From contig CAIWFK010000823.1 in the NCBI GenBank assembly GCA_903911905.1, forward strand, positions 1-20,582: a stretch of DNA of 20,582 bases, in the 5' to 3' direction. Made by a program: the position numbers and the translations under genes. Source of the DNA: an uncultured Myxococcales bacterium (GTDB lineage: Bacteria > Myxococcota > Myxococcia > Myxococcales > Myxococcaceae). Of the stretch, positions 1 through 17,488 are shown piece after piece; position 1 is the stretch's first letter, and each line of letters opens with the position of its first letter. The notes below the pieces were generated by a model. The model did no database searches, was not told the origin of the DNA, and worked only from the letters and a program-made list of their open reading frames with translations.

Positions 1-1086
1 ATTCGCACCCCCATGAACGGGGTGCTGGGCATGACCAGCGTGATGCTGGGGCTAAAGGGGCTGCCGCCCGAGGTGCGCGAAGGGCTGACCACCATTCAGC
101 AGAGCGGCAGCACCTTGATGGCCGTCATCAACGACATTCTCGACTTCTCGAAGATCGAATCGGGCCGCATGGTGCTCGAGCGCGAGCCCATCGACCTGCG
201 CGCCGAGTTCTCGGCGCTCAAGGCGCTGCTCGAAGGCGTGGCGACCGAGCACGACAACCACTTCGTGCTCACCATTTCCGACGAGGTGCCCTCGTACGTC
301 GCGGGTGACCCGGTGCGGCTGCGCCAGGTGGCGCTCAACCTGCTGTCGAACGCGCTCAAGTTCACCACCGTCGGCCGGGTCGAAGCGCGGCTCTTCGTGC
401 GCGAGGGCCAGTTGGTGCTCGAGGTCACCGACAGCGGCATCGGCATGAGCCCGCAGGTCCTCGAGCGGCTCTTCCAGCCCTTCACCCAGGCTGACGCCTC
501 GACGACCCGCCGTTTTGGCGGCACGGGCCTGGGCCTGGCCATCGTGCGGCGCCTGGTCGAGGCCATGAAGGGCTCCATCACCGCGAGCAGCGTCGTCGGT
601 CGGGGCAGCACCTTCACCGTGACCCTGCCGATGGACGTGGTGCCCCCGCCGCCGAACGCCACCCCCACCCCGGTTCGCGCCGCGCGCACGCTGCGGGTGC
701 TGCTGGCCGAAGACAACCCCATCAACCAGCGCGTGGCGCGCGGGCTGCTCGAGCAACTGGGTCACGAGGTGGTGATGGCCGACGACGGCCAGCAGGCGCT
801 CGACCGCCTCACCGCCGCCGACTTCGACATCATCCTCATGGACTGTCACATGCCGGTGATGGACGGCTTCGAGGCCACCCGCATCGTGCGCGAGCGCAAG
901 GGCCGCACGCAGCCCATCATCGCGCTGACCGCCGCCTCGCTGCCCGAAGAGCAGACCCGCTGCCTCGAGGCCGGCATGGACGCGGTGTTGCTCAAGCCCG
1001 TCAGGCGCGAAGACCTGCGGGCCATGCTCGAGCGCTACGCCGGCCCCTCAGGCGTCGCTCCCTTGCCCGCCCAGCGCGCCGAGTGA
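1..1086 (+). CDS. Hybrid sensor histidine kinase, 5'-truncated by the window edge. It carries the tail of HisKA, a HATPase_c domain and a C-terminal receiver domain.
   Basis: The frame is open from nt 1. The first residues 'IRTPMNGVLGM' are the end of an H-box (HELRTPxNxI). ATPase boxes are present (NLLSNALKF, DSGIGM, GGTGLGLAIV). The receiver domain has 'RVLLAEDNPIN', the phospho-Asp context 'IILMDCHMPVMDG' and 'LLKP'. GC3 bias is strong. The stop is TGA at 1084-1086. Confidence 0.9.
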   Translation: MRTPMNGVLGMTSVMLGLKGLPPEVREGLTTIQQSGSTLMAVINDILDFSKIESGRMVLEREPIDLRAEFSALKALLEGVATEHDNHFVLTISDEVPSYVAGDPVRLRQVALNLLSNALKFTTVGRVEARLFVREGQLVLEVTDSGIGMSPQVLERLFQPFTQADASTTRRFGGTGLGLAIVRRLVEAMKGSITASSVVGRGSTFTVTLPMDVVPPPPNATPTPVRAARTLRVLLAEDNPINQRVARGLLEQLGHEVVMADDGQQALDRLTAADFDIILMDCHMPVMDGFEATRIVRERKGRTQPIIALTAASLPEEQTRCLEAGMDAVLLKPVRREDLRAMLERYAGPSGVAPLPAQRAE

Positions 1087-4939: not shown

Positions 4940-5470
4940 TCAGAGTTCGCGGCTCATCAGCAGGCGAAGCTTGCCGCTCTTCTTCGAGACCACGGTGGCG
5001 ACGGTGGTGAAGCCGGCCTTGCGGTAGAAGCTGACCGCGGGAGAATTTGCGGGGTCGACGCGCAGGGCCAGGGTCTTGCGGTTCATGTCGCGGGCGAGCG
5101 TGAGGCCCTGTTCGAGCACCACGGCGCCCATGCCCTTCTGCCGCAGTTCCTGCTTCACGACGATGTTACGCATGTACGCGGCGCCCGGCACCGGGCCGTC
5201 GCGCTCGATGGTGACGTAGCCGACGACCGCGCCGCCGAGCTTGGCCACCGAAATGAAGGGGCGCAGCTTGGTGAGCGCCTCGAGGCTCTCGCCCTGGGCT
5301 TCACCGCGGGCCTTCCATGGCTCTGACGCACTGCGGAGCGTGGCCAGCGCGTTCATGTCTTCGTCGGTGGGCACGGCGAACTTCACCTGCCCCTTGAAGT
5401 CGGCCGGCAACGTCACCGGCGGAAGCGTGGAATTCGCGCCAGTGGAGGTGTCAATCTGCTTGTCGGTCAT
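4940..5470 (-). CDS. GNAT-family N-acetyltransferase.
   Basis: 176 aa. The acetyl-CoA motif region is 'IVVKQELRQKGMGAVVLEQGLTLARD' (Q/RxxGxG/A). The C-terminal 'VSFYRKAGF' is typical of GNAT. SD 'AAGGGA' lies 6-11 nt upstream of the ATG at 5470. Confidence 0.75.
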   Translation of the reverse strand: MTDKQIDTSTGANSTLPPVTLPADFKGQVKFAVPTDEDMNALATLRSASEPWKARGEAQGESLEALTKLRPFISVAKLGGAVVGYVTIERDGPVPGAAYMRNIVVKQELRQKGMGAVVLEQGLTLARDMNRKTLALRVDPANSPAVSFYRKAGFTTVATVVSKKSGKLRLLMSREL

Positions 5471-5684: not shown

Positions 5685-6389
5685 GTGCAACTGAACCACG
5701 CCCAGCGTGAGCTGACGGTCAAGATCGTCTACTACGGCCCCGGCCTGTCGGGGAAAACGACCAACCTGCAGATGGTGCATCAGCGCACGGCCAGCGACGT
5801 GCGCGGCCGCCTGCTGACGGTCGAGACCCACGACGATCGGACCCTCTTCTTCGATCTGCTTCCCGTCTTCTTCAGCACCGCCAACGGCTTCAAGGTGAAG
5901 GTCAAGCTGTTCACCGTGCCCGGGCAGGTCATTCACAACGCGACCCGACGCATCGTGCTGCAGGGCGCCGACGCGGTGGCCTTCATCGCCGACAGCCGCC
6001 GCTCGATGGGGCCCGACAACAACGCGTACTGGAAGAACCTGCTCGAGAACATGCGCGAGAACGGGCTCGACCCCGCGCAGGTGCCGGTGGTCATTCAGTA
6101 CAACAAGCGCGATCTGCCCGACGCCAAGACCGACGCCGAGATCGAAGAGACCCGCAAGAAGGGCAAGGAACCGGTGGTCGGCGCCATCGCCATTCGCGGC
6201 GTGGGCGTGCTCGAAACGCTGCACGCGGTACTGCAGGTGGGCTACCGCGCCATCGACGCGCGCGCCGGGCTGACCAAGAACATCGGCCTGACCGAACGCG
6301 AATTCCTGGGGCAGGTCTTCGCCAACATCGACACCACGGGCACCGAGCTCGAAAAGGCGTTTCCGCCGCGCAAGGTGGAAGCGAAATGA
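5685..6389 (+). CDS. MglA-family Ras-like small GTPase paralog with a C-terminal extension of about 40 aa.
   Basis: GTG start. '[22 protein letters not shown]' is near-identical to Myxococcus MglA '[22 protein letters not shown]'. Switch I is '[11 protein letters not shown]' (intrinsic Arg retained). Switch II is 'FTVPGQV' (Gln retained). 'VIQYNKRDL' is the NKxD box. '[13 protein letters not shown]' is the SAK-like box. The protein is 234 aa, versus about 195 aa for canonical MglA. Its stop overlaps the next start (ATGA). Confidence 0.9.
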   Translation: [234 protein letters not shown]

Positions 6390-7864
6390 GGCAGGGCGAG
6401 TCGGTGCTGCAGCGTCGAATCTCGCTCGGCGAGATGCTCGACGGCGAGTCCTTCACCGAAGTGGTGAAGGGCTTCGTCGAGCTCTACCGCGTGGGCATCA
6501 AGGTGTTCGACGACAAGGGCGCGAAGCTCGCCGACATCAAGATCAACAACGGTGACTTCTGTGGCTACGTCTTCAGCTTTCCCGAAGGGCGTCGCCGCTG
6601 TACGGCCACCGTGGGCCGGGTGAAGGACGGCCCGGTCGCCACCACCCACGGTGCGCGGCTGCCGGTGCTCGAGAGCGACCTCGTACCGCAGGCCAGGGGC
6701 ATGGTGACCGTGCCCTGCTTTACCGGGCTGCGGTACCTGATCATGCCCATTCTGTGGGAAGGCGACACCATGGGCCGGGTGGTGTTCGGGCCCTTCACGC
6801 CCGAAGACCTGGTCGACTTCCCGCCGCGCTCGCTGACCGAGGTCACCGACGCCTTCGACGTCGGCAACGCGAAGACCCTGGTCGAGAAGGTGCGGCGCGC
6901 GCCCGAGAGCACCATCGCCCGCATCATGCTGCACTTCGGTCAGTTGATGCAGACCATGCTCTTCGCCGGTCAGAAGATGTTCCTGACCAGCCAGTTGCAC
7001 ATCGAGGCCACGCTCGAACAGAACCGCGAGCTCGAGGAACGCAACCGCAAGCTCGAGGACATGAACACCCGCCTCAAGGAACTCGACCGGCTCAAGAGCG
7101 CGTTCCTGGCCACGGTCAGTCACGAGCTGCGCACGCCGCTGACCAGCATCATCGGCTATTCGGAAATGCTGGCCGAGGGGCTGGCCGGCACGCTCAACGA
7201 CGAGCAGGTCGACTACGTGCGCACCATCATGGAAAAGGGCGAGACGCTGCTCAAGCTGATCAGCAGCATTCTCGACATCTCGCAGATCGAAGCCGGCAAG
7301 GTGCGGCTCAACTTCGAGCCGATGGACGCCATCGAGCTGGTGACCTCGTCGGTGAGCAGCTTGAAGCCGCAGGCGCACAAGAAGGGCGTGGTGCTCGAGG
7401 CCAGGGTGCCCTCGCGAGTCGCCCAGGTGAACGGCGACCGCGATCGCCTTCGCCAGGTCATCGTCAATCTGCTCGCCAACGCGGTGAAGTTCACGCCCAA
7501 GGCCGGTCGGGTCACCGTGACCTTGAGCGAGGTGGGGCACCAGCCCGACCTGAACGCCCAAGGCTACCGCATCATCGTCGAGGACTCGGGCGTGGGCATT
7601 CCCGCCGACCAGTTCGACAAGATCTTCCACAGCTTCTACCAGGTCGACTCGAGCTCGACGCGCGAGTACGGCGGCGCGGGCCTGGGGCTGGCCATCGTCA
7701 AGAGCTTCGTCGAAGGCCACGGCGGCGTGGTGCGGGTGGCCAGTGAAATGGGCCACGGCAGCCGCTTCACGCTGATTCTGCCGGTGGTGCCGTCGTTGCA
7801 GCCGCAGGTGCAGATCACCCCTCCGGTGACCGCGCTGCAGGCACCCGTCGACGACCGCTTCTAG
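6386..7864 (+). CDS. Cytoplasmic sensor histidine kinase: an N-terminal PocR-like sensory domain, a coiled coil, HisKA and HATPase_c. No TM segments and no receiver domain.
   Basis: The N-terminus 'VFDDKGAKLA...DFCGYVFSFPEGRRRC...VPCFTGLRYLIMPILWEGDTMGRVVFGPF' fits the PocR pattern (dxdG...FC...G..rC....ChaGl.d..pI...G..iG.....gp). The coiled coil is 'LEQNRELEERNRKLEDMNTRLKELDRLKSAFLA'. The H-box is 'VSHELRTPLTSIIGYSEML', followed by N, G1, F and G2 boxes. SD 'AAGGTGGAAG' lies upstream. The start overlaps the stop of the MglA-like gene. Confidence 0.88.
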   Translation: MRQGESVLQRRISLGEMLDGESFTEVVKGFVELYRVGIKVFDDKGAKLADIKINNGDFCGYVFSFPEGRRRCTATVGRVKDGPVATTHGARLPVLESDLVPQARGMVTVPCFTGLRYLIMPILWEGDTMGRVVFGPFTPEDLVDFPPRSLTEVTDAFDVGNAKTLVEKVRRAPESTIARIMLHFGQLMQTMLFAGQKMFLTSQLHIEATLEQNRELEERNRKLEDMNTRLKELDRLKSAFLATVSHELRTPLTSIIGYSEMLAEGLAGTLNDEQVDYVRTIMEKGETLLKLISSILDISQIEAGKVRLNFEPMDAIELVTSSVSSLKPQAHKKGVVLEARVPSRVAQVNGDRDRLRQVIVNLLANAVKFTPKAGRVTVTLSEVGHQPDLNAQGYRIIVEDSGVGIPADQFDKIFHSFYQVDSSSTREYGGAGLGLAIVKSFVEGHGGVVRVASEMGHGSRFTLILPVVPSLQPQVQITPPVTALQAPVDDRF

Positions 7865-7865
7865 G

Positions 7866-8564
7866 TCAGGCCAGCCCGACGAAGATGGTCTGCACGTCGT
7901 CGTCTTCGTCCATCTCGGCCAGGAAGTCGTCGACCTCGGCGCGCTTGGCCGGGTCGTCGAGCGTCACCGGGTTCTTCGCGCGCCAGACCAGCGCCGCGGT
8001 CTCGACCTTCCAGTGCGCGGCCTCGAGCGCCTTGCGGACCGCGTCGAGGTCGGTGGCCTCGGTGAAGAACCGGGTCGCGCCGTCTTCGCCAGCCTCGAGG
8101 TCCTGCGCGCCAGCTTCGATGGCTGCGGTCTCGGCGTCGGCGCCCGCGGGCGGCGTCGCTTCGATGGCGCCCAGCCGCGCAAAGTCCCACGAGATGGCGC
8201 CGGTGGCGGCGATCTGCCCCTTGCGGAAGAGCTGGCGCACGTTGGCCGCGGTGCGGGCGCGGCTCTCGGTCAGGCACTCGACGATGACCGGCACCTGGTG
8301 CGGCGCGAAGCCTTCGTAGGTGACCAGCTCGTAGTTGACCGCTTCGTCGAGCAGCCCCGCGCCCTTCTTGATGACGCGCTCGAGCGTGTCCTTCGTCATC
8401 TGCGCCTTCTTCGCCTGCTCGATGGCCAGGCGCAGGCGCGCGTTGCTCGACGGGTCGGCGCCGCCCTTCGCGGCCATGAGGAGTTCCTTGGCGGCCTTGC
8501 TCAGCAGCTTGCCCTTCGCTGCCGCGTTCGCCGTGCGACCCTTGTGCTTCCACTGTGCGCCCAT
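7866..8564 (-). CDS. YebC/PmpR-family (DUF28) transcriptional regulatory protein.
   Basis: The ORF was trimmed to the internal Met ('MGAQWKHKGRTANAAAKGKLLSKAAKEL...GGADPSSNARLRLAIEQAKKAQMTKDTLERVIKKG...YEGFAPHQVPVIVECLTESRARTAANVRQLF...DDDVQTIFVGL'). This gives colinear similarity to YebC along the whole length. The upstream 72 codons of the ORF are low-complexity and unlikely to be translated. Confidence 0.85.
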   Translation of the reverse strand: MGAQWKHKGRTANAAAKGKLLSKAAKELLMAAKGGADPSSNARLRLAIEQAKKAQMTKDTLERVIKKGAGLLDEAVNYELVTYEGFAPHQVPVIVECLTESRARTAANVRQLFRKGQIAATGAISWDFARLGAIEATPPAGADAETAAIEAGAQDLEAGEDGATRFFTEATDLDAVRKALEAAHWKVETAALVWRAKNPVTLDDPAKRAEVDDFLAEMDEDDDVQTIFVGLA

Positions 8565-8647
8565 GGCCGCCGCATAGCCGAAAACCGGCCCCGCCGTCGC
8601 GTCGCGCGCGCTCGAAAACGGCGTGGAGCTGCGGGCGTCGCAGCAGT

Positions 8648-8717
8648 GGTGGGGCGGCGTTTCGGGGGCCAACCGACGGTGCGGGGTCGGTGGGCCGTCA
8701 CACGAGCGGTGGGGCGC
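8648..8717. repeat. Phased GGTGGGG-type direct repeats in the divergent intergenic region. Three to four copies are spaced 30 bp apart, and two longer imperfect 33-bp copies are spaced 60 bp apart.
   Basis: GGTGGGGCGG at 8648, GGTGCGGGG at 8678, GGTGGGCC at 8689, GGTGGGGCGC at 8708. The extended copies are 'GGTGGGGCGGCGTTTCGGGGGCCAACCGACGG' and 'GGTGGGGCGCGGTCTCGGGCGCCAACGAAGCG'. Confidence 0.6.
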
Positions 8718-8801
8718 GGTCTCGGGCGCCAACGAAGCGCCCCGTCTTCTCGCGGGGCCTGTTCCGACCGACTGGAACACCAGGCCGTGCCCCCGTGTTG
8801 A

Positions 8802-11800
8802 GTGGAGGTTAAGGTCCCACTCGTGTTCGAGCCGTCCGTCCCGTCACCGCCACCCGAAGCTCCCCGACCTGCGCCCGCTTCGACTGCGGGTCGTGGGCTC
8901 GCGTTGCTCGACGAGGTGCGCGAAGCCCAGCGCCACTCGTTGCAGGCGCGTGGCGTGCTGCTGGGTCTGGCGGCGGCCGTCGCGTTGGTGCTGGCCGGCG
9001 CCTTCGTGGCTGGCGCGCTCTCGGTGCCGGTCGGTCGGGTGTTGTTGGTCGCCGGGCCCCTGGTCGGCGGTGCCCTCGCCGGGCTGCTGGGCGTGTGGTT
9101 GGTCTCACGGCGGGTCGGCGACGCCGAGCGCACCGCGCGACTGCTGGCGACCGAGCTGCCCGAGCTCAACCTCGACCTGTTGGCGGCGGTCGAATTGTCG
9201 AAGGCGCTCGGCACGCCCGACGACTTCTCACCCGACCTCGCGCGCGCCTTCCTCGCCGACGTCGACCGTCGTGCCGCCCGGCACCCGGTGGCCACGCTGG
9301 TCGACCCGCGCCCGGTTCGCACCGCCGCGCTCCTCTTCGGCGCCGTGCTGCTGGTGGGCGGTGGCCTGCTGATCTGGCGGGGGCCGGTCGCGCGCCAGGG
9401 CGTGGCGCTGGCCTTCGCCTCGGCCGACGAAGCGGTGCTGGCGCGCTCGCCCATCACCGGCGACTTCGAGCTGACCTACCACTACCCCGCGCACACTGGC
9501 CTCGAGGCGAAGACGGTGGCGGGCACTGGCGACATCGCCGCGCCCGCGGGCACCGAGGTGGTGGTCAAGACCCACGCCGACCGCGACGTCGACGCCGCCG
9601 CGCTCGTCATCAACGGCCAGCGCACGCCGATGGTGGTGACCGGCCGCGCGCTCGACGCGAAGTTCGTGCTCGAGACCTCGGGGCAGTACCACGTGGCCTT
9701 CCTCTCGGGCTCGCGGGTGCGCGCCGAGGGCCCCGACCTGACCATCACCGTCGGGGCCGACCAGGTTCCGCAGGTGCGCATCAGCTCGCCGGCCGACAAC
9801 GTCGAGCTCGACGCCAGCAAGCAACAGGTCGCCATCAACTACGAAGCGAGCGACGACTACGGGCTGACCGCGCTCGACCTGGTCTACCGCGCGTCGGGCG
9901 GTGCCGAGCAGCGCGTTCCGCTCAAGCCCGACGACGGTCGCACCACCCGCGGCAGCTACACGTGGGACGTCTCGGGCCTCTCGCTGCGGCCGGGTCAGAC
10001 GGTCAGCTACTTCCTCGAGGCCACCGACAACGACGCGGTCAAGGGCCCGAAGAAGGGCGTGTCGGGCACGCTGCAGCTCAAGCTCTACAGCGTCGAGGAG
10101 CATCGCCGCGAAGCGCTCAAGAAGACCGAAGCGCTCTGGGAACGACTCATCACCCACGTCGCCGACCGACTCGAGGGTGCCGACCGCGCCGCGCCCACCA
10201 CGCCCACCGCGGCGCTCGAGGGCAAGCCGGTCGACACCCGCGCCCAGCAACTGGGTGAAGACCTGGTGCAATTGGCGAAGGACCTCGACGAGGACCGCGA
10301 CCCGCCCGAAGAGCTCATCGGCGCCCTGCGCAACGTGTCGACCGAGCTGGCGCGCGACCAGTCGACCATCGCCGTCAACCGCCGCCTGCTGTTGCGCATG
10401 GCCGGGAAGGACGGCTCGAAGACCGAGCCCGAGCCGGCTCCCGCGCCCCGCACCGCCGAGGTGGGCCGCCGCCTGGCCGCCGCGCTGGCCCGCGACGCGG
10501 TGCACGGCGAAAAGAACGTGCTGTACCTGGAAGCGCTGCTCGACCGGCAGAAGATGGAGGCCATCAAGTCGCTGGCGAAGGAGCTCAAGGAAGACCGCCG
10601 CGAGCTGTCGAACCTGCTCGAGCAGTACGCGAAGACGAAGGACGAGAAGACCCAGTCGCAGTTGCTGCAGCAGATGGATCAACTCAAGGCCCGCATGCTC
10701 GAGCTGCAGCAGCGCATGGCCGAACTGGCGCGCGGCGTGCGCGACGACTTCATGAACGCCGAGGCCATGCAGCAGATGATGGAAGACGAGAACCTCGGCG
10801 GCTCGCTCGACGAGGTCGAGAAGCTCATTCGCGAAGGCAAGGCCGAAGAGGCCTTGAAGAAGATGCAGGAACTGTCGATGCAGATGGACGACTTCCTCGA
10901 CAAGCTCGACGACGCGGCCGACAAGGCCGACCAGCAGGCCGACCCCGAGCTGGTCGAGAAGTTCTCGAAGTTCCAGGAAGACCTCGAGCAGACCATCGCC
11001 TCACAGGAAGCCCTGAGCGAGAAGACCCGCGCCCTGCGCGACAAGTACCGCGACGCCCAGAAGGAACGCATCGCCAGGGAAGGCGCGCAGCTCAAGCGCG
11101 AGCTGGGGCAGCGGCTCGACGAACTCGACAAGAGCTGGAAGCAGCTCGACGCCGACCGCTACGGCGCGCGCTTCCAGGAGCACCGAGCGCAGGCCCAGCG
11201 CTCGCTCGAGAACACCCGCCAGGCGCTCGAGGCCAACGACTTCGACCTCGCTTCCGAATCGGCCGACCACCTCGAAGAGCAGACCCACCAGATGGCCGAG
11301 CAGGCCGACGAGCAGCGCCGCCTCGACGAGATGTTCCAGAACCCCAGCGACGTGCGCCGCGAATCGAAGCAACTGCGCGACCGGTTGACCCGCGACGCGA
11401 AGAAGGCCGACGAGGTGGCGCGCGCGCTGCGCGACCTCTTCCCCCAGCCGGGGCAGCAGCTGAGCGAGGCCGACCGCCAGCAGATGCAGGACTTGGCCCG
11501 TCAGCAAAAGGGGCTGCAGCAGAAGAGCCAGCAACTGGGCCAGCAGATGGACGAACTGGGCGAGCGCGCCCCCATCTTCGACGAAGACGCCCAGCAGCAG
11601 ATGCAGCAGGCCGGTCAGCGCATGGGCAACGCCCAGGAACGGCTCTCGGGGCGTGACCCCAGCCGCGGCTTCGGCGAGCAGCAGGGCGCGCTGCAGTCGC
11701 TCAAGGGCCTGCAGCAGTCGATGCAGCAGCAGGGCAAGAAGGGCGGCAAGGGCGGCATGCCGTTGCCGATGAAGGGCGCTCGTTCGGGCCACGGCCACCG

Positions 11801-11945
11801 CAACGAGAAGGTCGAGATTCCCGACGCCGACCCGAATGCCGCGCCCCGCGAGTTCCGCAAGGACGTGATGGACGCCATGAAGCAGGGCGCACCCGACCGC
11901 TACCGCGACCAGAACAAGAAGTACTACGAGGAGTTGGTCAAGTGA
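8802..11945 (+). CDS. Large membrane protein (1047 aa) with four parts: a Pro-rich N-terminus, three TM helices, a beta-rich extracytoplasmic region of about 250 aa, and a highly charged, Gln-rich coiled-coil region of about 600 aa ending in a Gly/Lys tail. Function unknown. The architecture is reminiscent of DUF4175-type proteins, but this is from memory and unverified.
   Basis: First start is GTG 8802, immediately after an in-frame TGA. An alternative GTG lies at 8823, downstream of GGAGG at 8804-8808. The TM segments are 'LLGLAAAVALVLAGAFVAGAL', 'VLLVAGPLVGGALAGLLGVWLV' and 'AALLFGAVLLVGGGLLIW'. Long heptad-like, E/K/R/D/Q-rich sequence runs from about aa 430 to 1000 and includes repeated 'QQMQ' units. 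The C-terminus is 'GKKGGKGGMPLPMKG...KKYYEELVK'. Confidence 0.75.
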   Translation: MEVKVPLVFEPSVPSPPPEAPRPAPASTAGRGLALLDEVREAQRHSLQARGVLLGLAAAVALVLAGAFVAGALSVPVGRVLLVAGPLVGGALAGLLGVWLVSRRVGDAERTARLLATELPELNLDLLAAVELSKALGTPDDFSPDLARAFLADVDRRAARHPVATLVDPRPVRTAALLFGAVLLVGGGLLIWRGPVARQGVALAFASADEAVLARSPITGDFELTYHYPAHTGLEAKTVAGTGDIAAPAGTEVVVKTHADRDVDAAALVINGQRTPMVVTGRALDAKFVLETSGQYHVAFLSGSRVRAEGPDLTITVGADQVPQVRISSPADNVELDASKQQVAINYEASDDYGLTALDLVYRASGGAEQRVPLKPDDGRTTRGSYTWDVSGLSLRPGQTVSYFLEATDNDAVKGPKKGVSGTLQLKLYSVEEHRREALKKTEALWERLITHVADRLEGADRAAPTTPTAALEGKPVDTRAQQLGEDLVQLAKDLDEDRDPPEELIGALRNVSTELARDQSTIAVNRRLLLRMAGKDGSKTEPEPAPAPRTAEVGRRLAAALARDAVHGEKNVLYLEALLDRQKMEAIKSLAKELKEDRRELSNLLEQYAKTKDEKTQSQLLQQMDQLKARMLELQQRMAELARGVRDDFMNAEAMQQMMEDENLGGSLDEVEKLIREGKAEEALKKMQELSMQMDDFLDKLDDAADKADQQADPELVEKFSKFQEDLEQTIASQEALSEKTRALRDKYRDAQKERIAREGAQLKRELGQRLDELDKSWKQLDADRYGARFQEHRAQAQRSLENTRQALEANDFDLASESADHLEEQTHQMAEQADEQRRLDEMFQNPSDVRRESKQLRDRLTRDAKKADEVARALRDLFPQPGQQLSEADRQQMQDLARQQKGLQQKSQQLGQQMDELGERAPIFDEDAQQQMQQAGQRMGNAQERLSGRDPSRGFGEQQGALQSLKGLQQSMQQQGKKGGKGGMPLPMKGARSGHGHRNEKVEIPDADPNAAPREFRKDVMDAMKQGAPDRYRDQNKKYYEELVK

Positions 11946-13639
11946 GCGCCCTGCTGCTCGTCGTCGCCGTGCTCGCCGCCGAGCCTGCCCCCGAGGTCAA
12001 GGGTGAGGCCAAGGCCCGAATGCAGAACCTCGAGCAGGCGCTCAACGACTGGGACCTCGAGGGCGCGCGCGTCGAACTGGCCGAACTGGCGAAGCTGGCG
12101 CCGGCCGACTCGGCGCCGCTGGCCTATTTCGAGGGGCGGGTGGCCTTCGAAGAGGGGCGCTACGACGACGCCGTCGAGCGGCTGACCCGCGCCGGCATCA
12201 GCGACAAGACGGGCACCTGGCTCACCCTGGCGCAGCAGACGCGCGACGTGGTCGGCCACCACGAGCGAATCGAGAGCGAGCACTTCGTCTTCCTCTACGC
12301 GAAGGGCTCGAAGGACCAGGCGCTCGCCAACTGGGCGCTCGACGCGCTCGAGCACCAACGCGCCGCGCTCGAGAAGGACCTGGGCTACGTGCCGCCCGGC
12401 AAGATTCGCATCGAATTCGTGGGCAGCGCTGGAGAGCTCTCGAAGGTCTCGACGCTCTCGAAGGAAGCCATTCGCACCACCGGCACCATCGCCATCTGCA
12501 AGTTCAACAAGCTGATGGTCACCAGCCCTCGCGCCGTCATCATGGGCTACGACTGGCTCGACACGGTGGCGCACGAATACACGCACCTGGTCATCTCGAA
12601 GAAGAGCCACAACACCGTGCCCATCTGGATGCACGAGGGCCTGGCCAAGTACCTCGAGTCGCGCTGGCGCGGGCCGTACGGCGGCGCGATGACGCCTTCG
12701 ACCCTGGCGCTGCTGGGCAGCCGGGTGCGGGCCAATACCCTGGTGCCCTTCGAGAAGATGCACCCCTCGATGGCGCTGTTGCCCACCGCCGAAGACGCGG
12801 CCACCGCCTTCGCCGAGGTCTTCTTCGCCATCGAGCTCATTCACCAGCAGGGGCCCGATTCGCTCTCGCGGCTGCTCGACAAGATGGCCAGCGGCGTCAC
12901 CGACCGCGTCGCCGTCGAGGCCGTCACCACCCGCAAGTGGCCGGAGTTCGAAAAGGCGTGGATGGCGCACCTGCGCAAGCAACCCTTCCCCAGAGCGCTC
13001 ATTCCGCGCAGCTCGAACGAGAAGAAGGAGCTGGCCGAGCACCAGGGCGAGCAGGACAAGAAGAAGTCGCACCGCGAGGTGTCGTTCGGTGACTTCAAGG
13101 AAGTCACCGAGGTCGACGCCCGCCGCGACGCGCACCTGGGTGAGCTGTACCGTGAGCGACAGCGCATGGGTGCCGCCGCCGAGGCCTACGCCCGCGCGTG
13201 GAAGGTGGCCGGAGATAAGTACGAATCGGTCAGCAACAAGTACGCGCTGACGCTGCTGGAACTGAAGCGCTTCGACGAAGCCGAGAAGGTGCTCGAGGGC
13301 AGCCTCACCATGCACCCCGGCTCGGCCAGCACCAACGTGCACCTGGGCCGCATTCGCCTGCGCGCCAGGGCGTGGAAGCGCGCGACCCAGGCCTACCTCG
13401 ACGCGCTGGCGGTCAACCCCTTCGACCCCGAGGTCTTCGTCGCGCTCTACGCCGCGGCCTCGGCGTCGGGTGACCCGGCGCTCGCGGCCCGTGCGCTCGC
13501 GGGGGCCAGGCTGCTGCTCAAGCTCGACGACAAGCAGGTTGCCGAAGTGGCGCGTCGCTTCGTGCGCAACGAAGACCTCAGCGACGTCGACCTCTCGACC
13601 CCGGCCGCGACGTCTGCGCCCGCTCCCGACGCCGGCTGA
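11942..13639 (+). CDS. Signal-peptide-bearing TPR-repeat protein with a central HExxH zinc-metallopeptidase domain (peptidase MA-like).
   Basis: GTG start, overlapping the upstream stop (GTGA). SD GAGGAG lies 10 nt upstream. The N-terminal 'MSALLLVVAVLAAEPAP' is signal-like. 'VAHEYTHLV' is the HExxH motif. 'PIWMHEGLAKYLE' is the downstream Glu/ligand motif typical of peptidase-MA domains. TPR-like helices flank it at the N-terminus (LEGARVELAELAKLAP, FEGRVAFEEGRYDDAV) and the C-terminus (AEAYARAWKVAGDKYES...NKYALTLLELKRFDEAEKVL...QAYLDALAVNP). Confidence 0.75.
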   Translation: MSALLLVVAVLAAEPAPEVKGEAKARMQNLEQALNDWDLEGARVELAELAKLAPADSAPLAYFEGRVAFEEGRYDDAVERLTRAGISDKTGTWLTLAQQTRDVVGHHERIESEHFVFLYAKGSKDQALANWALDALEHQRAALEKDLGYVPPGKIRIEFVGSAGELSKVSTLSKEAIRTTGTIAICKFNKLMVTSPRAVIMGYDWLDTVAHEYTHLVISKKSHNTVPIWMHEGLAKYLESRWRGPYGGAMTPSTLALLGSRVRANTLVPFEKMHPSMALLPTAEDAATAFAEVFFAIELIHQQGPDSLSRLLDKMASGVTDRVAVEAVTTRKWPEFEKAWMAHLRKQPFPRALIPRSSNEKKELAEHQGEQDKKKSHREVSFGDFKEVTEVDARRDAHLGELYRERQRMGAAAEAYARAWKVAGDKYESVSNKYALTLLELKRFDEAEKVLEGSLTMHPGSASTNVHLGRIRLRARAWKRATQAYLDALAVNPFDPEVFVALYAAASASGDPALAARALAGARLLLKLDDKQVAEVARRFVRNEDLSDVDLSTPAATSAPAPDAG

Positions 13640-13642
13640 GCG

Positions 13643-15394
13643 TCACTGGGTGCGGGTCGACCACTTCTGCGTCGCGCTGTCGAAGGTGACGATGGTGGTC
13701 TGGTCGGGCAGCACCACCGCGCGGGTACTCGACGAGCTGCCGTCGGCCAGCTTCACGGTGATTTTCAGCGACCCGGCCGGCACCCGGTGATTGACCGGCG
13801 GCTCGCCCCAGTCTTCGCTGCCCACCGCGATGGTGGCGCGGGCCCCGCTGACGTTGATGCGCAGCTTGCCTTCGCCCACCGGAATGGCGGCCTCGACGGG
13901 CGCGGGCGTGCTCGAGGGCGCGTCCTTCTTTTCCGGCACGTCTTTCGGCGGGCGGGGCGGTCTGGGGGTCGTCGGGCGCGGGGCCGGCACTGGCGGCACC
14001 GTCGGCGGCGCTGGCACGGGGGCTGGTGTCGGCGCGACGGGCTCGGCCGCAGGTTCTTGTCGAACGTCGACGTCGGGCACCGCGATTCTTACCGCCGGTC
14101 GAGGTGGTTCGACGGCGGTCGCCACCGGCGTGGGCGGCTCACCAGGCGGCAGCGGGCTGGGCACGCCGGCATCGGTCAGCAACACCACCAGCCCCACGCC
14201 CAGCGCGATGCTGGCCAGGAACGACAGCGCGACCAGCACGGTCTTCGCCGAGGTGCGCCGGGGCGGCACCGGGTCGAGCCGCTCGGTGCGCATGGGGCGA
14301 GGCGGTCGAACCGGGCCCGGCGCGGTGATGACAGGGGCGGGCAGCGGCCGCTCGTTGACCCGCTCGTCGAGCGTCTGGGCCGGAGGAGGCGGCGGGGGCA
14401 GCGGCGCGGGCGCAGGCACCTGCACCGCGGGGAAGATGCTCGAGCGACTGCCTCCGCCCGAGGTGAGCGTGCCCTGGTCGTCGACGTAGCCCAGCAGGCT
14501 CGACTGGCTCAGGCGCACGCGGGCATCGAAGGCGGCCTTCTCGAGCGCCTCGCGCATCTCTCGCGCGCTCTGGTATCGCTGCTCGGGCTTGACCATCAGC
14601 GAGCGGGTCACCACCGCGCTCAGGCCTTCGGGCAGTCCGGGGAAGGCCTGGTCGAGCGACTTCCACTGCCCGCGTACCAGCGCCGCGTGGCGGTCGGCGA
14701 GGTTGGTGAAGTCGTCGAAGGGGGTCGCGCCCGAGGCCAGCTTGTAGAGCGTGACGCCCAACGAGAAGAGGTCGCTGCGACCGTCGAGCCGCTTGCCCAT
14801 GGCCTGCTCGGGCGAGAAATAGCCCGCCTTGCCCTTGGTGACGCCGGGCATGGTGAGGTTGCGGTTGGTGGCGGCCTTGGCAATGCCGAAGTCGATGAGC
14901 TTCAAGGCCCCCGCGCTCGAGAGCAGCAGGTTGTGCGGCGAGACGTCGCGGTGCACCAGGTCGACGGTGCCGCCCTCGACGGTGAGCGCGTGCACGGCCT
15001 CGAGCGCGCCACAGCAGGCCACGCCGATGGCGAAGATGGCCTCGTCCGAGAAGCGCTGTTCCCTGCCTCGCATGATGCGGTTGATGGTGGCGAGCGTCTC
15101 GCCGGCCACCAGTTCCATCACCATGAAGAGCTGCCCGTCGTCGCTCTCACCCACCTCGTAGATGTGCACGATGTTGGGGTGCGAGAGCGTTCAGGCGGTG
15201 CGCGCCTCGTCGAGGAACATCTCGCGGAACTCGCTCGACTCGGAATACTCGGGCCGAATCACCTTCACCGCGACGGGGCGGGTGATGCCTCCGGTGAGGT
15301 CCTGCTCGGCGCGGTACACCTCGGCCATGCCACCCTGCGCGATGAGGCGCGAGATGGTGTAGCGACCGATGCGGGTACCGGCGTCGAGTGACAT
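13643..15394 (-). pseudogene. Membrane Ser/Thr protein kinase with a C-terminal PEGA-like domain, interrupted by an in-frame TGA at 15191-15193. The catalytic loop is degenerate.
   Basis: ORFs 15191-15394 and 13643-15169 are in the same frame, separated by a single TGA: '...FREMFLDEARTA*TLSHPNIVHIYEV...'. The N-lobe has 'IAQGGMAEVYRA' and 'VAVKVIRPE'. The catalytic loop is 'HRDVSPHNLL' (Lys of HRDLKPxN replaced). The DFG and SPE motifs are 'LIDFG' and 'GYFSPE'. The protein continues with a Pro-rich linker, a TM helix 'VLVALSFLASIALGVGLVVLL', a Pro-rich spacer and a PEGA-like beta domain ('GKLRINVSGARATIAVGSEDWG...HRVPAGSLKITVKL'). Confidence 0.7.
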
Positions 15395-15413
15395 CGAAGA
15401 GACGACCCCGCGG

Positions 15414-16565
15414 TCACCAACTGGTCAGAATGTCGGTCGTCGGAATCGTCACGCAGCCGCCGCCGGTGACGGGCATGTCGTTGGTGAGGTCCCATTCCTG
15501 GAAGGTGGCCGGGCCGGTGAGCGTGAGGTGCGCGGTGCCGGCGTCGGCGCGGTCGGCGCGGGTGGCGGTCATGCTGCCGCTGCGGGCGAAGTAGTTGGGG
15601 CCGGTGCAGCCGCCAGTCGACGTGCAGTTGGTGCTGTAGCTCGCGCAGAACAGGCAGTTGCTGAAGTTGGGCTCGCTCGCCAGGTTCCGGGTGCTGGGCA
15701 CCACGACGCCGGTGGGCGTGTTGCCGAGCGACCACACCACGTCGAGCTCGAGATAGGCGGTGGACGCACCCTTCAGGCCGGCCGTCAGCTCGAACGAGCC
15801 AGGCTGGTTGACGTAGCCGCCACTGACCGTGCTGGGCAGGGTGATGGGGGTGCAGCCGCCGCCACCCGCGCCACCGGTGCCCGTGCCGCCACCGGTCGCG
15901 GTGCCACCGCCGGTGCCAGCGGTCACGCAGCCGAAGGGCGTGCAGCTCTGGCCCGACTGGCAGGCCATGCAGCGCGCGCCGCCGGTGCCACAGAACGACA
16001 AGCTCTGCTGCGCGAAGGTGACGCAGTTGCCGTTGAGGTCGGTGCAGCCCGAGCAGGTGGTGCCGCCGCCGCCGCCGGTCGCCCCGGTGACGCAGGTGCC
16101 CGTCGAGGCATTGCACGCCAGCCCGAGCCCGCTGCAGTTGGTGCACACCTGCCCGTTGCGGCCACAGCTCGTCGCACCGGTGCCCAGCTGGCAGCCTGCG
16201 GCGGTGCAGCAACCGTTGCAGGTCGACGGCGAGCAGCTCGTCGTGCCGCCGCCACCGCCGGTCGCGAACCCGCCGCCCGTGGCGAAGCCACCACCGGTCG
16301 AGCCGTTGCCGCCACCCGCGCTGCCCAGCAGGCACACGCCCTGGTTGCAGGAGTCTCCGAGCGGGCACATGCGGCACTGGTTGCCCGACGCGCCGCAGGC
16401 CGCCACGTCGCTGCCGGGCTGGCAGTGGTTGGTCAGGTCGCAACAGCCGCTGGGGCAGCTGCGGGCGTCACAGTGCGCGGCGGTGCCACCGCCACACGAC
16501 GCGCCGAGGGAAAGGAGAAAACCGAGAAGGAAGCCGGGAACGAGCCAGCGCCAGGGGCCGTGCAT
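15414..16565 (-). CDS. Secreted modular Cys/Gly-rich protein: a signal peptide, then three Cys-rich modules separated by poly-Gly/Thr linkers, then a C-terminal beta-rich domain.
   Basis: The start was chosen at the internal Met 'MHGPWRWLVPGFLLGFLLSLGAS-CGGG' (classic n/h/c signal regions). The ORF extends to 16619 (alternative start MLAARHG). Module 1 is 'CDARSCPSGCCDLTNHCQPGSDVAACGASGNQCRMCPLGDSCNQGVC'. The linker 'GGGFATGGGFATGGGGG' follows. Modules 2 and 3 have the same C-x(2,4)-C / G-x-C rhythm. GC3 is strong. The gene lies 19 nt upstream of the kinase gene on the same strand. Confidence 0.6.
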   Translation of the reverse strand: MHGPWRWLVPGFLLGFLLSLGASCGGGTAAHCDARSCPSGCCDLTNHCQPGSDVAACGASGNQCRMCPLGDSCNQGVCLLGSAGGGNGSTGGGFATGGGFATGGGGGTTSCSPSTCNGCCTAAGCQLGTGATSCGRNGQVCTNCSGLGLACNASTGTCVTGATGGGGGTTCSGCTDLNGNCVTFAQQSLSFCGTGGARCMACQSGQSCTPFGCVTAGTGGGTATGGGTGTGGAGGGGCTPITLPSTVSGGYVNQPGSFELTAGLKGASTAYLELDVVWSLGNTPTGVVVPSTRNLASEPNFSNCLFCASYSTNCTSTGGCTGPNYFARSGSMTATRADRADAGTAHLTLTGPATFQEWDLTNDMPVTGGGCVTIPTTDILTSW

Positions 16566-16651
16566 GGGCCCCACATCCACCACTGTTGGGGCTCGAAGTC
16601 CATGCCGGGCAGCCAACATGGCGCGCTGGGGTTGTGACAGAGTGCGCGCCC

Positions 16652-17488
16652 ATGAAACGCCTCATCGTGCTGACCCTCCTCGCTGCGGCCGCCTGCGGCG
16701 GCAAGGACTCGAGCAAGCGCACGGCTGATCAACTCGCCGCGCTCGAAAAGAAGCGGGCCGAGGAAAAGAAGGCCGAGAAGGTCGACAAGCTGGCGCCCCT
16801 GGTGGCCGAAGTGCTCCACCTGCCCGCGCCCTACGACGAGAGCGGCGCGCTGGTGGTGCTGCCCGACGGCCCGTGCCCCGACGGCCTGTGGGCCTTCTTC
16901 CCGGGGGAAGCGCCCGGCAGCACGCCCGACGAGAAGAAGGCCAACGCTGCGCACCGCAAGGACCTGGTGGCGGCGCTCAGCAGCCGAACCATTCTGGTGA
17001 AGCTGCGCTCGCCGGCCACGGTGACGCTCTCGCCCTACGACGCGCCCAACGGCAAGTTCCTCATCGACGTGGTGGGCACCATCGACTGCACCGATTCCCT
17101 GGGCCGCATCGCGCTGGCGTGGACCGACGCGAAGGCCACCACGCCCGGCAATTCGGCCGCGAAGGAAGGCGCCGACCTGACCCAGAACGTGTGGGTCGCG
17201 CCGCCAGTGACCTTCGAGTTGTTCATCAAGTCGCTGACCGAGGCCAAGACCTTCAACGACAAGAACCGCTTCGGGCTCTCGGCCCGCGTGGCCTTCACGC
17301 CCGGCAAGGCCGAGGTCGACAAGAAGGTGACGAAGGTGAAGAAGGTGAAGGCCGAGGCGGCGGGCGAGAAGCTCTCGTTCGGCGGCGGCAGCGAAGACTG
17401 GGGTGCCGGTCGCCTGCTGCGCGGCACGCTTCAGGGCGTGCGCGTCGCCACCGAGCAGGAAAAGAAGGAGCTGTTCAACAAGAAGTGA
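16652..17488 (+). CDS. Putative lipoprotein of unknown function.
   Basis: Trimmed to 'MKRLIVLTLLAAAACGGKD' (signal peptide plus lipobox-like LAAAAC). The mature protein is Lys/Ala-rich at both ends with a central globular part. It is divergent from the Cys-rich gene, with 87 bp between starts. Confidence 0.6.
   Translation: MKRLIVLTLLAAAACGGKDSSKRTADQLAALEKKRAEEKKAEKVDKLAPLVAEVLHLPAPYDESGALVVLPDGPCPDGLWAFFPGEAPGSTPDEKKANAAHRKDLVAALSSRTILVKLRSPATVTLSPYDAPNGKFLIDVVGTIDCTDSLGRIALAWTDAKATTPGNSAAKEGADLTQNVWVAPPVTFELFIKSLTEAKTFNDKNRFGLSARVAFTPGKAEVDKKVTKVKKVKAEAAGEKLSFGGGSEDWGAGRLLRGTLQGVRVATEQEKKELFNKK

Follow-up and report, generated by a model that had tools for sequence, protein, structure and literature searches.

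The DNA analysed here, called the window below, is the 20,582-nt contig CAIWFK010000823.1 of an uncultured Myxococcales bacterium (GenBank assembly GCA_903911905.1), and our subject is a two-gene unit that it carries: a gene for a DUF4175-family protein with three predicted transmembrane (TM) helices (protein 1), followed by a gene for a zinc peptidase flanked by tetratricopeptide repeat (TPR) modules (protein 2). We favour, with a probability of roughly 55%, the reading that this locus is the extracytoplasmic arm of a MoxR/Bat-type envelope system, detached from the MoxR-DUF58-BatA genes in this myxobacterial lineage. A function shared with the MoxR array is suggested because the pair stands in one same-strand array with it in most other lineages. 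As an orthologue the locus is ordinary; its module is widespread, catalogued and uncharacterised, and what our analysis adds is a connection with operons of the MoxR/Bat type.

Both genes are real, and their translation is coupled. At their junction, a Shine-Dalgarno sequence GAGGAG (11928-11933) is followed by an 8-nt spacer and a GTG start (11942-11944) that overlaps the TGA stop of the first gene (11943-11945), exactly the arrangement of a coupled two-gene operon with a 4-bp overlap described in an earlier annotation made from the letters alone (the sequence-only reading). The window has a G+C content of ~70%, because of which it holds numerous overlapping long open reading frames (ORFs) in other frames, and its real genes were picked out by domain matches. 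Homologues and domain matches fall on the two named ORFs only, which removes a chance-ORF explanation of the pair. Since its upstream neighbour is divergent and its downstream neighbour convergent, the pair is a self-contained two-gene unit; a promoter and terminator scan of this operon returned nothing above chance. The best matches of the window's proteins belong to Myxococcota, with metagenomic sequences closest (90-95% identity) and those from Archangium, Myxococcus, Corallococcus and Pyxidicoccus at 46-70%.

Co-conservation of the pair, on which the sequence-only reading depended, was examined in two sets of loci. A genome scan with a peptidase alignment as the query, taking one genome per species, gave 529 relatives, of which the best 80 were used; all of these belong to the Myxococcaceae or Archangiaceae. 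Other phyla were covered by a metagenome scan seeded with a DUF4175 protein 25% identical to that of the window, and its 80 loci have a G+C content of 37-73% and proteins 22-63% identical to the window protein. Counting only loci with room for the neighbouring gene on the contig, the DUF4175 gene lies directly upstream of the peptidase gene in 76/77 genome loci, and a TPR-peptidase gene directly downstream of DUF4175 in 64/65 metagenome loci. The 4-bp stop/start overlap is kept in 73/76 genome and 55/68 metagenome loci (128/144 together), and as the identity of one protein changes from clade to clade, that of the other changes with it. The pair thus passes the test of co-conservation that the sequence-only reading had named as a possible refutation.

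The pair is split in two loci. One (L013, 4919-9856) has a 5-kb insert between the two genes that carries an M43/reprolysin-like metallopeptidase and Cys-rich proteins. In the other (L124, 12925-13611), a gene for a DsbA-like thioredoxin overlaps the DUF4175 stop by 4 bp and the peptidase gene follows 9 kb downstream; DsbA in this place fits a function in the periplasm and is a faint reminder of the old proposal that linked Bat operons to "reducing power". A metagenomic protein of 1275 aa from ENA (P0072) joins DUF4175 residues 35-998 to peptidase residues 17-106. Either the fusion is natural or it stems from a frameshift or an error of assembly; a real fusion would be Rosetta-stone evidence for an interaction.

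The neighbourhood outside the window's own lineage connects the pair with MoxR. A MoxR gene lies downstream on the same strand in 37 of the 49 metagenome loci with room for it, immediately adjacent in 33, and this MoxR AAA+ gene is usually followed by genes for DUF58 and a BatA-type VWA membrane protein. The order DUF4175 - peptidase - MoxR recurs with a distant homologue (L001-L003), and in one clade of mid G+C content, DUF4159 and a GATase1-like membrane protein come after BatA. In acidobacterial contigs, these seven families are all present but ordered as TPR-peptidase - DUF4159 - MoxR - DUF58 - BatA - DUF4175 - GATase1-like, and their 1100-aa protein passes the DUF4175 threshold. Several Myxococcota, for example L079 and L040, keep a contiguous array; in L079, the end of the peptidase gene is followed after about 130 nt by MoxR, DUF58 and BatA. 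The simplest history, judged from gene order, would be an ancestral array headed by the pair, with the pair split from the MoxR genes in the lineage of the window. As a side observation, a GH3 (NagZ-like) gene follows BatA, or an alpha/beta hydrolase gene stands between peptidase and MoxR (L079, 15799-16929; L040, 9675-10754), and these neighbours may hint at cell-wall or envelope turnover.

Protein 1 matched the Pfam family DUF4175 (PF13779) over residues 103-867 with 68.9 bits against a cut-off of 27.3 (E = 3.2e-19), above the gathering threshold, and its immunoglobulin (Ig)-like region alone gave 48.9 bits, in line with the family assignment of the sequence-only reading. We found 119 homologues of protein 1. 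The DUF4175 profile recovered 2233 cluster representatives (50% identity) at E <= 1e-30, and the 150 best of these are mostly full-length proteins of 980-1150 aa. Over its full length, protein 1 aligns with 57 homologues, down to 25% identity, and the relatives share the full DUF4175 architecture: N-terminal TM helices, an Ig-like region, a long helical region and a YY-containing C-terminal tail. An AlphaFold2 (AF2) model of the monomer was built from 58 sequences and reached a mean predicted local distance difference test (pLDDT) score of 83.5. The Pro-rich head proposed earlier is present, and Kyte-Doolittle peaks and AF2 helices bear out the three TM helices. The loop between TM2 and TM3 contains ten K/R residues and many nearly invariant positions from G106 to A149. 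A beta-rich domain of about 250 aa had been placed outside the membrane; the model retains such a domain but makes it smaller, about 207 aa arranged as two Ig/FN3-like domains. This region has an invariant DDxG motif (D351, D352, G354), an invariant D409 and a weak Big_7 match. A Foldseek search with the model found tandem Ig/FN3 modules (E about 3e-5 to 1e-4); the dynein-stalk matches from the same model were rejected as helical noise, the generic tandem Ig match alone being meaningful.

The single coiled coil or ruler of about 600 aa seen by the sequence-only reading was not recovered. Instead, the helical region of residues 431-980, rich in Q (11.8%) and E (11.1%) and with a net charge of -22, was divided by DSSP on the AF2 model into ~16 helices of 6-66 aa, parted by Pro/Gly-containing breaks, and P715, P848, P881 and P924 at these breaks are nearly invariant in the family. 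As a single helix, the rod would span about 82 nm. Because of the helix lengths (65 + 31 + 32, then 66 + 27 + 31, etc.), folded-back bundles fit better than one helix, and the model would have the rod as stacked helical hairpins or bundles. The "QQMQ" repeats once noted in this region reflect compositional bias, as a tandem-repeat scan of the DNA of the two-gene operon found no true tandem repeats. A Gly/Lys-rich stretch does follow the helices, as described before, and a conserved tail comes after it. The linker formed by this stretch carries the motif GGxGG-x-P-x-P, in which G982, G985, P987 and P989 are nearly invariant and which is seen in relatives at 25% identity. In the tail, M1026, Y1034, Y1041 and Y1042 are invariant and about 20 further positions nearly so. 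Its signature P..Y..(x)..YYxxL is common across phyla, with PxxY...YY/YF..L retained at the very C-terminal end of acidobacterial and further distant homologues; in Bacteroidota-like members, too, the tail can be recognised. Pfam scans of the cytoplasmic loop and of the C-terminal tail at E <= 1 gave no informative match. Profile searches of the PDB gave only TPR or designed helical-bundle matches, and thus neither family has a solved relative by sequence.

Protein 2, with 786 homologues, matched Peptidase_MA_2 (PF13485) with 44.6 bits against a cut-off of 32.4 (E = 1.9e-11) and TPR families besides, and its AF2 model has a pLDDT of 85 and a predicted template modelling score (pTM) of 0.83. 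The TPR-flanked HEYTH...MHEGLAKYLE site of the sequence-only reading thus stands, with a Peptidase_MA_2 score above the Pfam threshold, TPR matches on the C-terminal side and TPR-like helices on the N-terminal side. HExxH is accompanied by a downstream Glu as the third zinc ligand, and H211, E212, H215 and E232 are invariant both in 43 and in 60 sequences, even at 22-29% identity. The peptidase fold is thermolysin-like alpha/beta, a clan-MA gluzincin nearest to M30, M9 and M1 enzymes. The earlier claim of a signal peptide holds for the family, a signal-like hydrophobic N-terminal stretch being present in 139/144 peptidase orthologues and of the canonical Sec type (MRR...AxA) in homologues, but the copy in the window is short and without a basic n-region. 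From sequence and model we infer that protein 2 is a Sec-exported, active HExxH...E zinc endopeptidase set between two TPR modules.

In the mechanism we propose, protein 1 would act as an inner-membrane scaffold that projects two Ig-like domains, a rod, a flexible linker and a C-terminal peptide into the periplasm. The TPR modules of protein 2 would dock on protein 1, most plausibly on its YYxxL tail or its GGxPxP linker, and the protease would be tethered at a set height above the inner membrane, where it might trim or mature envelope proteins, or protein 1 itself. Where MoxR, DUF58 and BatA are present, the cytoplasmic AAA+/VWA module may assemble or regulate the scaffold through its membrane and cytoplasmic parts. 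In a bolder form, which we consider doubtful, the pair would be the periplasmic effector of an ATP-driven trans-envelope machine, in which MoxR/DUF58-VWA, acting through BatA and the DUF4175 loop, assembles, extends or gates the tethered protease.

Several points weigh against the proposed membership in a MoxR/Bat-type system. The 20.6-kb window contains no MoxR, DUF58 or BatA gene, none of the three lies within 10 kb of the pair in the closest relatives L006 and L010, and MoxR occurs within 10 kb in only 9/66 Myxococcaceae/Archangiaceae loci. One contig, probably from Bacteroidota (L004, 8001-11504), encodes a 1167-aa DUF4175 protein alone, with no peptidase or MoxR gene nearby and next to PorP/SprF and OmpA genes; that protein ends in a YYxxxxxxYFxxI-type tail. 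Bat/MoxR-MRP operons themselves lack a known function. Physical contacts within the pair, and of the pair with MoxR/BatA, are hypothetical, and the proposed docking of TPR modules on the tail is read from conservation only. The pTM of the AF2 monomer of protein 1 is 0.52, and the model would fix neither the shape of the rod nor an oligomeric coiled coil. Finally, the positive-inside bias of protein 1 is modest (0.21 vs 0.14 K+R per residue).

The leading alternative, itself unlikely in our view, is that in Myxococcaceae/Archangiaceae the pair is an autonomous, MoxR-independent and BepA-like envelope quality-control protease, with DUF4175 as anchor and spacer only. It would account for the 57 of 66 genome loci with room in which the pair is detached from MoxR, yet intact, coupled and 55-95% identical, for the invariant active site and for the signal peptides that predict export of the peptidase. 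Against it stand the strongly conserved cytoplasmic loop, superfluous in a passive anchor, and the same-strand array with MoxR-DUF58-BatA in which the pair is mostly found elsewhere; moreover, separation of the genes need not abolish a function shared with that array.

We hold it quite improbable that the pair is instead a self-processing signalling device, in which the peptidase would cut protein 1 at the GGxGGxPxP linker and free or expose the C-terminal peptide, or signal through the cytoplasmic loop. A linear motif in a disordered linker just before an ultra-conserved tail, kept down to 25% identity, would suit such a device, as would the conserved 1:1 translational coupling, but cleavage is conjecture, the conserved tail suits docking equally, and Pfam finds no transcription factor or anti-sigma domain in protein 1.

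Most of protein 1 probably lies in the periplasm, and protein 2 is probably exported. From sequence and model, protein 1 would be oriented N-in/C-out with the TM2-TM3 loop in the cytoplasm: in 53/58 sequences, the flanks predicted to be cytoplasmic are denser in K+R, and the 15 aa after TM2 contain a mean of 4.3 K+R over these 58. Ig-like domains are typical of extracytoplasmic proteins and agree with a periplasmic C-terminal part, and the exported coupled partner and the DsbA substitution in L124 point the same way. MoxR and DUF58 are cytoplasmic proteins, and in an inverted topology, the Ig and helical parts of protein 1 would meet them in the cytoplasm, and the exported peptidase next door would not be a physical partner. 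That arrangement draws on the cytoplasmic place of MoxR and DUF58 and on a weak positive-inside signal at TM3 (2.2 K+R in the 15 aa after it vs 2.6 before), but we consider it very improbable given the N-in/C-out preference in 53/58 sequences, the fit of tandem Ig-like domains to an extracytoplasmic place and the near-universal coupling to a signal-peptide protein, with DsbA as the coupled gene in one locus.

The sequence-only reading had likened protein 1 to a TolA-like tether or ruler or a gliding component and tied it to a nearby MglA paralogue, a proposal largely refuted by synteny and now highly implausible. In its favour, a genuine MglA-family GTPase gene does lie two genes upstream, protein 1 is membrane-anchored, largely helical and predicted to be periplasmic, TolA pairs with the TPR protein CpoB, and there is a weak TPR match to tol_pal_ybgF (E = 0.008); but the GTPase gene is near the pair in only 5/80 genome loci, each of them from a close relative and none from Myxococcus, Corallococcus or Cystobacter, the window contains no match to TolA, TolQ/R, Pal, Glt or Agl families, three TM helices and a segmented helical region are unlike TolA, and the conserved neighbours are MoxR, DUF58 and BatA. 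The motility link falls with these counts. The PocR kinase gene beside the GTPase gene is present at at least 72% identity in 7/80 genome loci (L006, L010, L026, L039, L040, L044 and L051), and it was not seen at the Myxococcus, Corallococcus and Cystobacter loci among these 80.

We next compared the pair with known systems. Canonical Bat/MoxR-MRP operons have the layout MoxR - DUF58 - BatA/BatB (VWA) - BatC (TPR) - BatD - BatE (TPR), and their mutants show envelope, morphology or stress phenotypes; for Bacteroides, Francisella, Riemerella and Rhizobium, mutant effects on the envelope, stress or virulence are on record. Relatives of the pair are likewise embedded in MoxR-DUF58-BatA/VWA arrays, and in both kinds of operon an AAA+/VWA module in the cytoplasm is combined with TPR proteins and with large extracytoplasmic proteins anchored in the membrane; neither kind has a known biochemical function. 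The canonical operon differs in having no DUF4175 protein and no metallopeptidase, and HExxH is missing from its TPR proteins, BatC and BatE. Protein 2 is an orthologue of neither, scoring 19.7 bits with the BatC model NF047507 against a cut-off of 175, and the window pair, unlike a Bat operon, has no MoxR/DUF58/BatA company in the window.

The closest working analogy for protein 2 is BepA (YfgC) of E. coli, a periplasmic M48 zinc metalloprotease with a TPR domain that acts in outer-membrane protein quality control. Both would be periplasmic HExxH proteases, and the TPR domain of BepA is thought to dock a partner. Protein 2 differs in that its sole peptidase family is Peptidase_MA_2, with no M48 match, in carrying TPR modules on both sides and in that a membrane partner dedicated to it is translationally coupled. 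TolA, with its one TM helix, needs TolQ/TolR and binds TolB through its domain III, and CpoB (YbgF) is not a protease. The pair would resemble TolA and CpoB as an inner-membrane-anchored long helical periplasmic protein encoded beside a periplasmic TPR protein, but it has three TM helices and segmented helices, and no TolA, TolQ, TolR or Pal family match occurs in the window. Both comparisons, with BepA and with TolA and CpoB, thus concern function by analogy only.

Two further systems bear on the bacterial array. For the archaeal arCOG01314 neighbourhood, which combines a MoxR-type ATPase, a vWA protein, membrane proteins bearing Ig-like domains outside the cell and a membrane-anchored flavodoxin-like protein, Makarova et al. 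(2015, PMC5898192) predicted a complex that serves secretion or membrane remodelling. The bacterial array similarly has MoxR, DUF58/VWA, an Ig-bearing membrane protein and GATase1-like/DUF4159 flavodoxin-like proteins; the archaeal system, a prediction only, draws its membrane proteins from other families and lacks a metallopeptidase. Alphaproteobacterial TIGR02302 proteins belong to the same Pfam superfamily, DUF4175, and give a hint of an envelope-related role, R. sphaeroides RSP_0730 (TIGR02302/DUF4175) being listed among the targets of the envelope and division regulator CenR. Unlike these, protein 1 matched no NCBIfam family at E < 0.01, TIGR02302 included.

A literature search found no experimental study of the pair, and mentions of DUF4175 concern other proteins. 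The "DUF4175" of Acinetobacter AdvA was set aside, since what matches is a short N-terminal part of a division protein that is unrelated. The earlier statement that this is not a described system is thus right as far as experimental papers go, but both families are catalogued, and outside Cystobacterineae the pair mostly heads a Bat/MoxR-MRP-type array.

The features of the pair and of the rest of the window are collected in Table 1. A gene for a bacterial vault-like protein adjoins the hybrid histidine kinase gene. The MglA-family GTPase and PocR kinase genes are kept together at 72-91% identity in close relatives and could form a small-GTPase-coupled two-component module. A tblastn search of the 80 related genome loci gave no YebC/TACO1, which seems to be a lineage-specific insertion at its position. 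The convergent Ser/Thr kinase gene has an in-frame TGA (15191-15193) within the kinase N-lobe, between LDEARTA and TLSHPNIV. A metagenome contig with 38 mismatches in 9.36 kb (L167) has TGC (Cys) at this site and an intact 583-aa kinase, and the window therefore carries either a nonsense mutation at strain level or an error of sequencing. One of the two lipoprotein-like products is a Cys/Gly-rich protein of 401 aa with repeated C-x-C-containing modules. Farther downstream, besides the lipoprotein genes, the window holds an ECF sigma/FecR pair and a PilZ gene.

Table 1. Features of the two-gene unit and of the other genes in the window (residue numbers refer to the respective protein).
Feature	Position	Strand	Remarks
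DUF4175-family inner-membrane protein gene (protein 1), 1047 aa	8802..11945	+	GTG start, TGA stop
Pro-rich N-terminal head, residues 1-30, predicted cytoplasmic	8802..8891	+	disordered; pLDDT <50 for 1-29
TM1-TM2 hairpin, residues 52-73 and 78-101	8955..9104	+	Kyte-Doolittle 2.65 and 2.18; AF2 helices 31-72 and 75-104
Conserved helical TM2-TM3 loop, residues 102-172 (~70 aa), predicted cytoplasmic	9105..9317	+	
TM3, residues 173-192	9318..9377	+	Kyte-Doolittle 2.14; AF2 helix 170-204
Two tandem Ig/FN3-like beta domains, residues 222-428, predicted periplasmic	9465..10085	+	AF2 strands, pLDDT ~90
Q/E/L/A-rich helical rod region, residues 431-980 (~550 aa)	10092..11741	+	DSSP on AF2 model
Disordered Gly/Lys-rich linker, residues 981-1012	11742..11837	+	pLDDT <50
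C-terminal tail, residues 1013-1047, ending ...APDRYRDQNKKYYEELVK	11838..11942	+	highly conserved
Coupling junction, reads GAGGAG-N8-GTGA	11928..11945	+	4-bp overlap (GTGA)
Gene for predicted exported TPR - gluzincin peptidase - TPR protein (protein 2), 565 aa	11942..13639	+	
Short predicted signal peptide, residues 1-13, VSALLLVVAVLAA followed by EP	11942..11980	+	Kyte-Doolittle 1.68
N-terminal TPR-like helical domain, residues 18-104	11993..12253	+	AF2 helices, pLDDT >90; weak TPR_2 match 61-84
Clan-MA (gluzincin) peptidase domain, alpha/beta, residues 108-345	12263..12976	+	
Zinc site: HEYTH, residues 211-215, and E232 in MHEGLAKYLE (230-239)	12572..12637	+	
Disordered K/E-rich linker, residues 354-384	13001..13093	+	pLDDT <50
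C-terminal TPR domain, residues 391-542	13112..13567	+	about 4.5 repeats
Hybrid histidine kinase	13-1086	+	truncated at window edge
Major-vault-protein-like gene, 713 aa	1048-3189	-	MVP_shoulder E 4e-29, Vault_3, Vault_4
GNAT acetyltransferase	4940-5470	-	
MglA-family GTPase (VKIVYYGPGLSGKTTNLQ...)	5685-6389	+	4-bp overlap with PocR kinase gene
PocR-sensor histidine kinase	6386-7864	+	
YebC/TACO1	7866-8780	-	between PocR kinase and DUF4175 genes
Ser/Thr kinase	13643-15412	-	convergent with the pair
Lipoprotein-like gene	15414-16619	-	no Pfam match
Lipoprotein-like gene	16586-17488	+	no Pfam match

Overall, MoxR-MRP/Bat operons are widespread, and the large DUF4175 family sits in them nearly always coupled to a metalloprotease with an intact active site, which offers an experimental handle on these operons. 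Myxococcus is open to genetic work, and in it the pair forms a clean unit of two genes. If MoxR is truly linked to the pair, several families would receive a role at once, namely DUF4175, DUF58, DUF4159 and BatA. Should the pair also prove to be part of a trans-envelope machine, Bat/MoxR-MRP operons, unexplained for 25 years, would gain an output: regulated periplasmic proteolysis at a fixed distance from the inner membrane.

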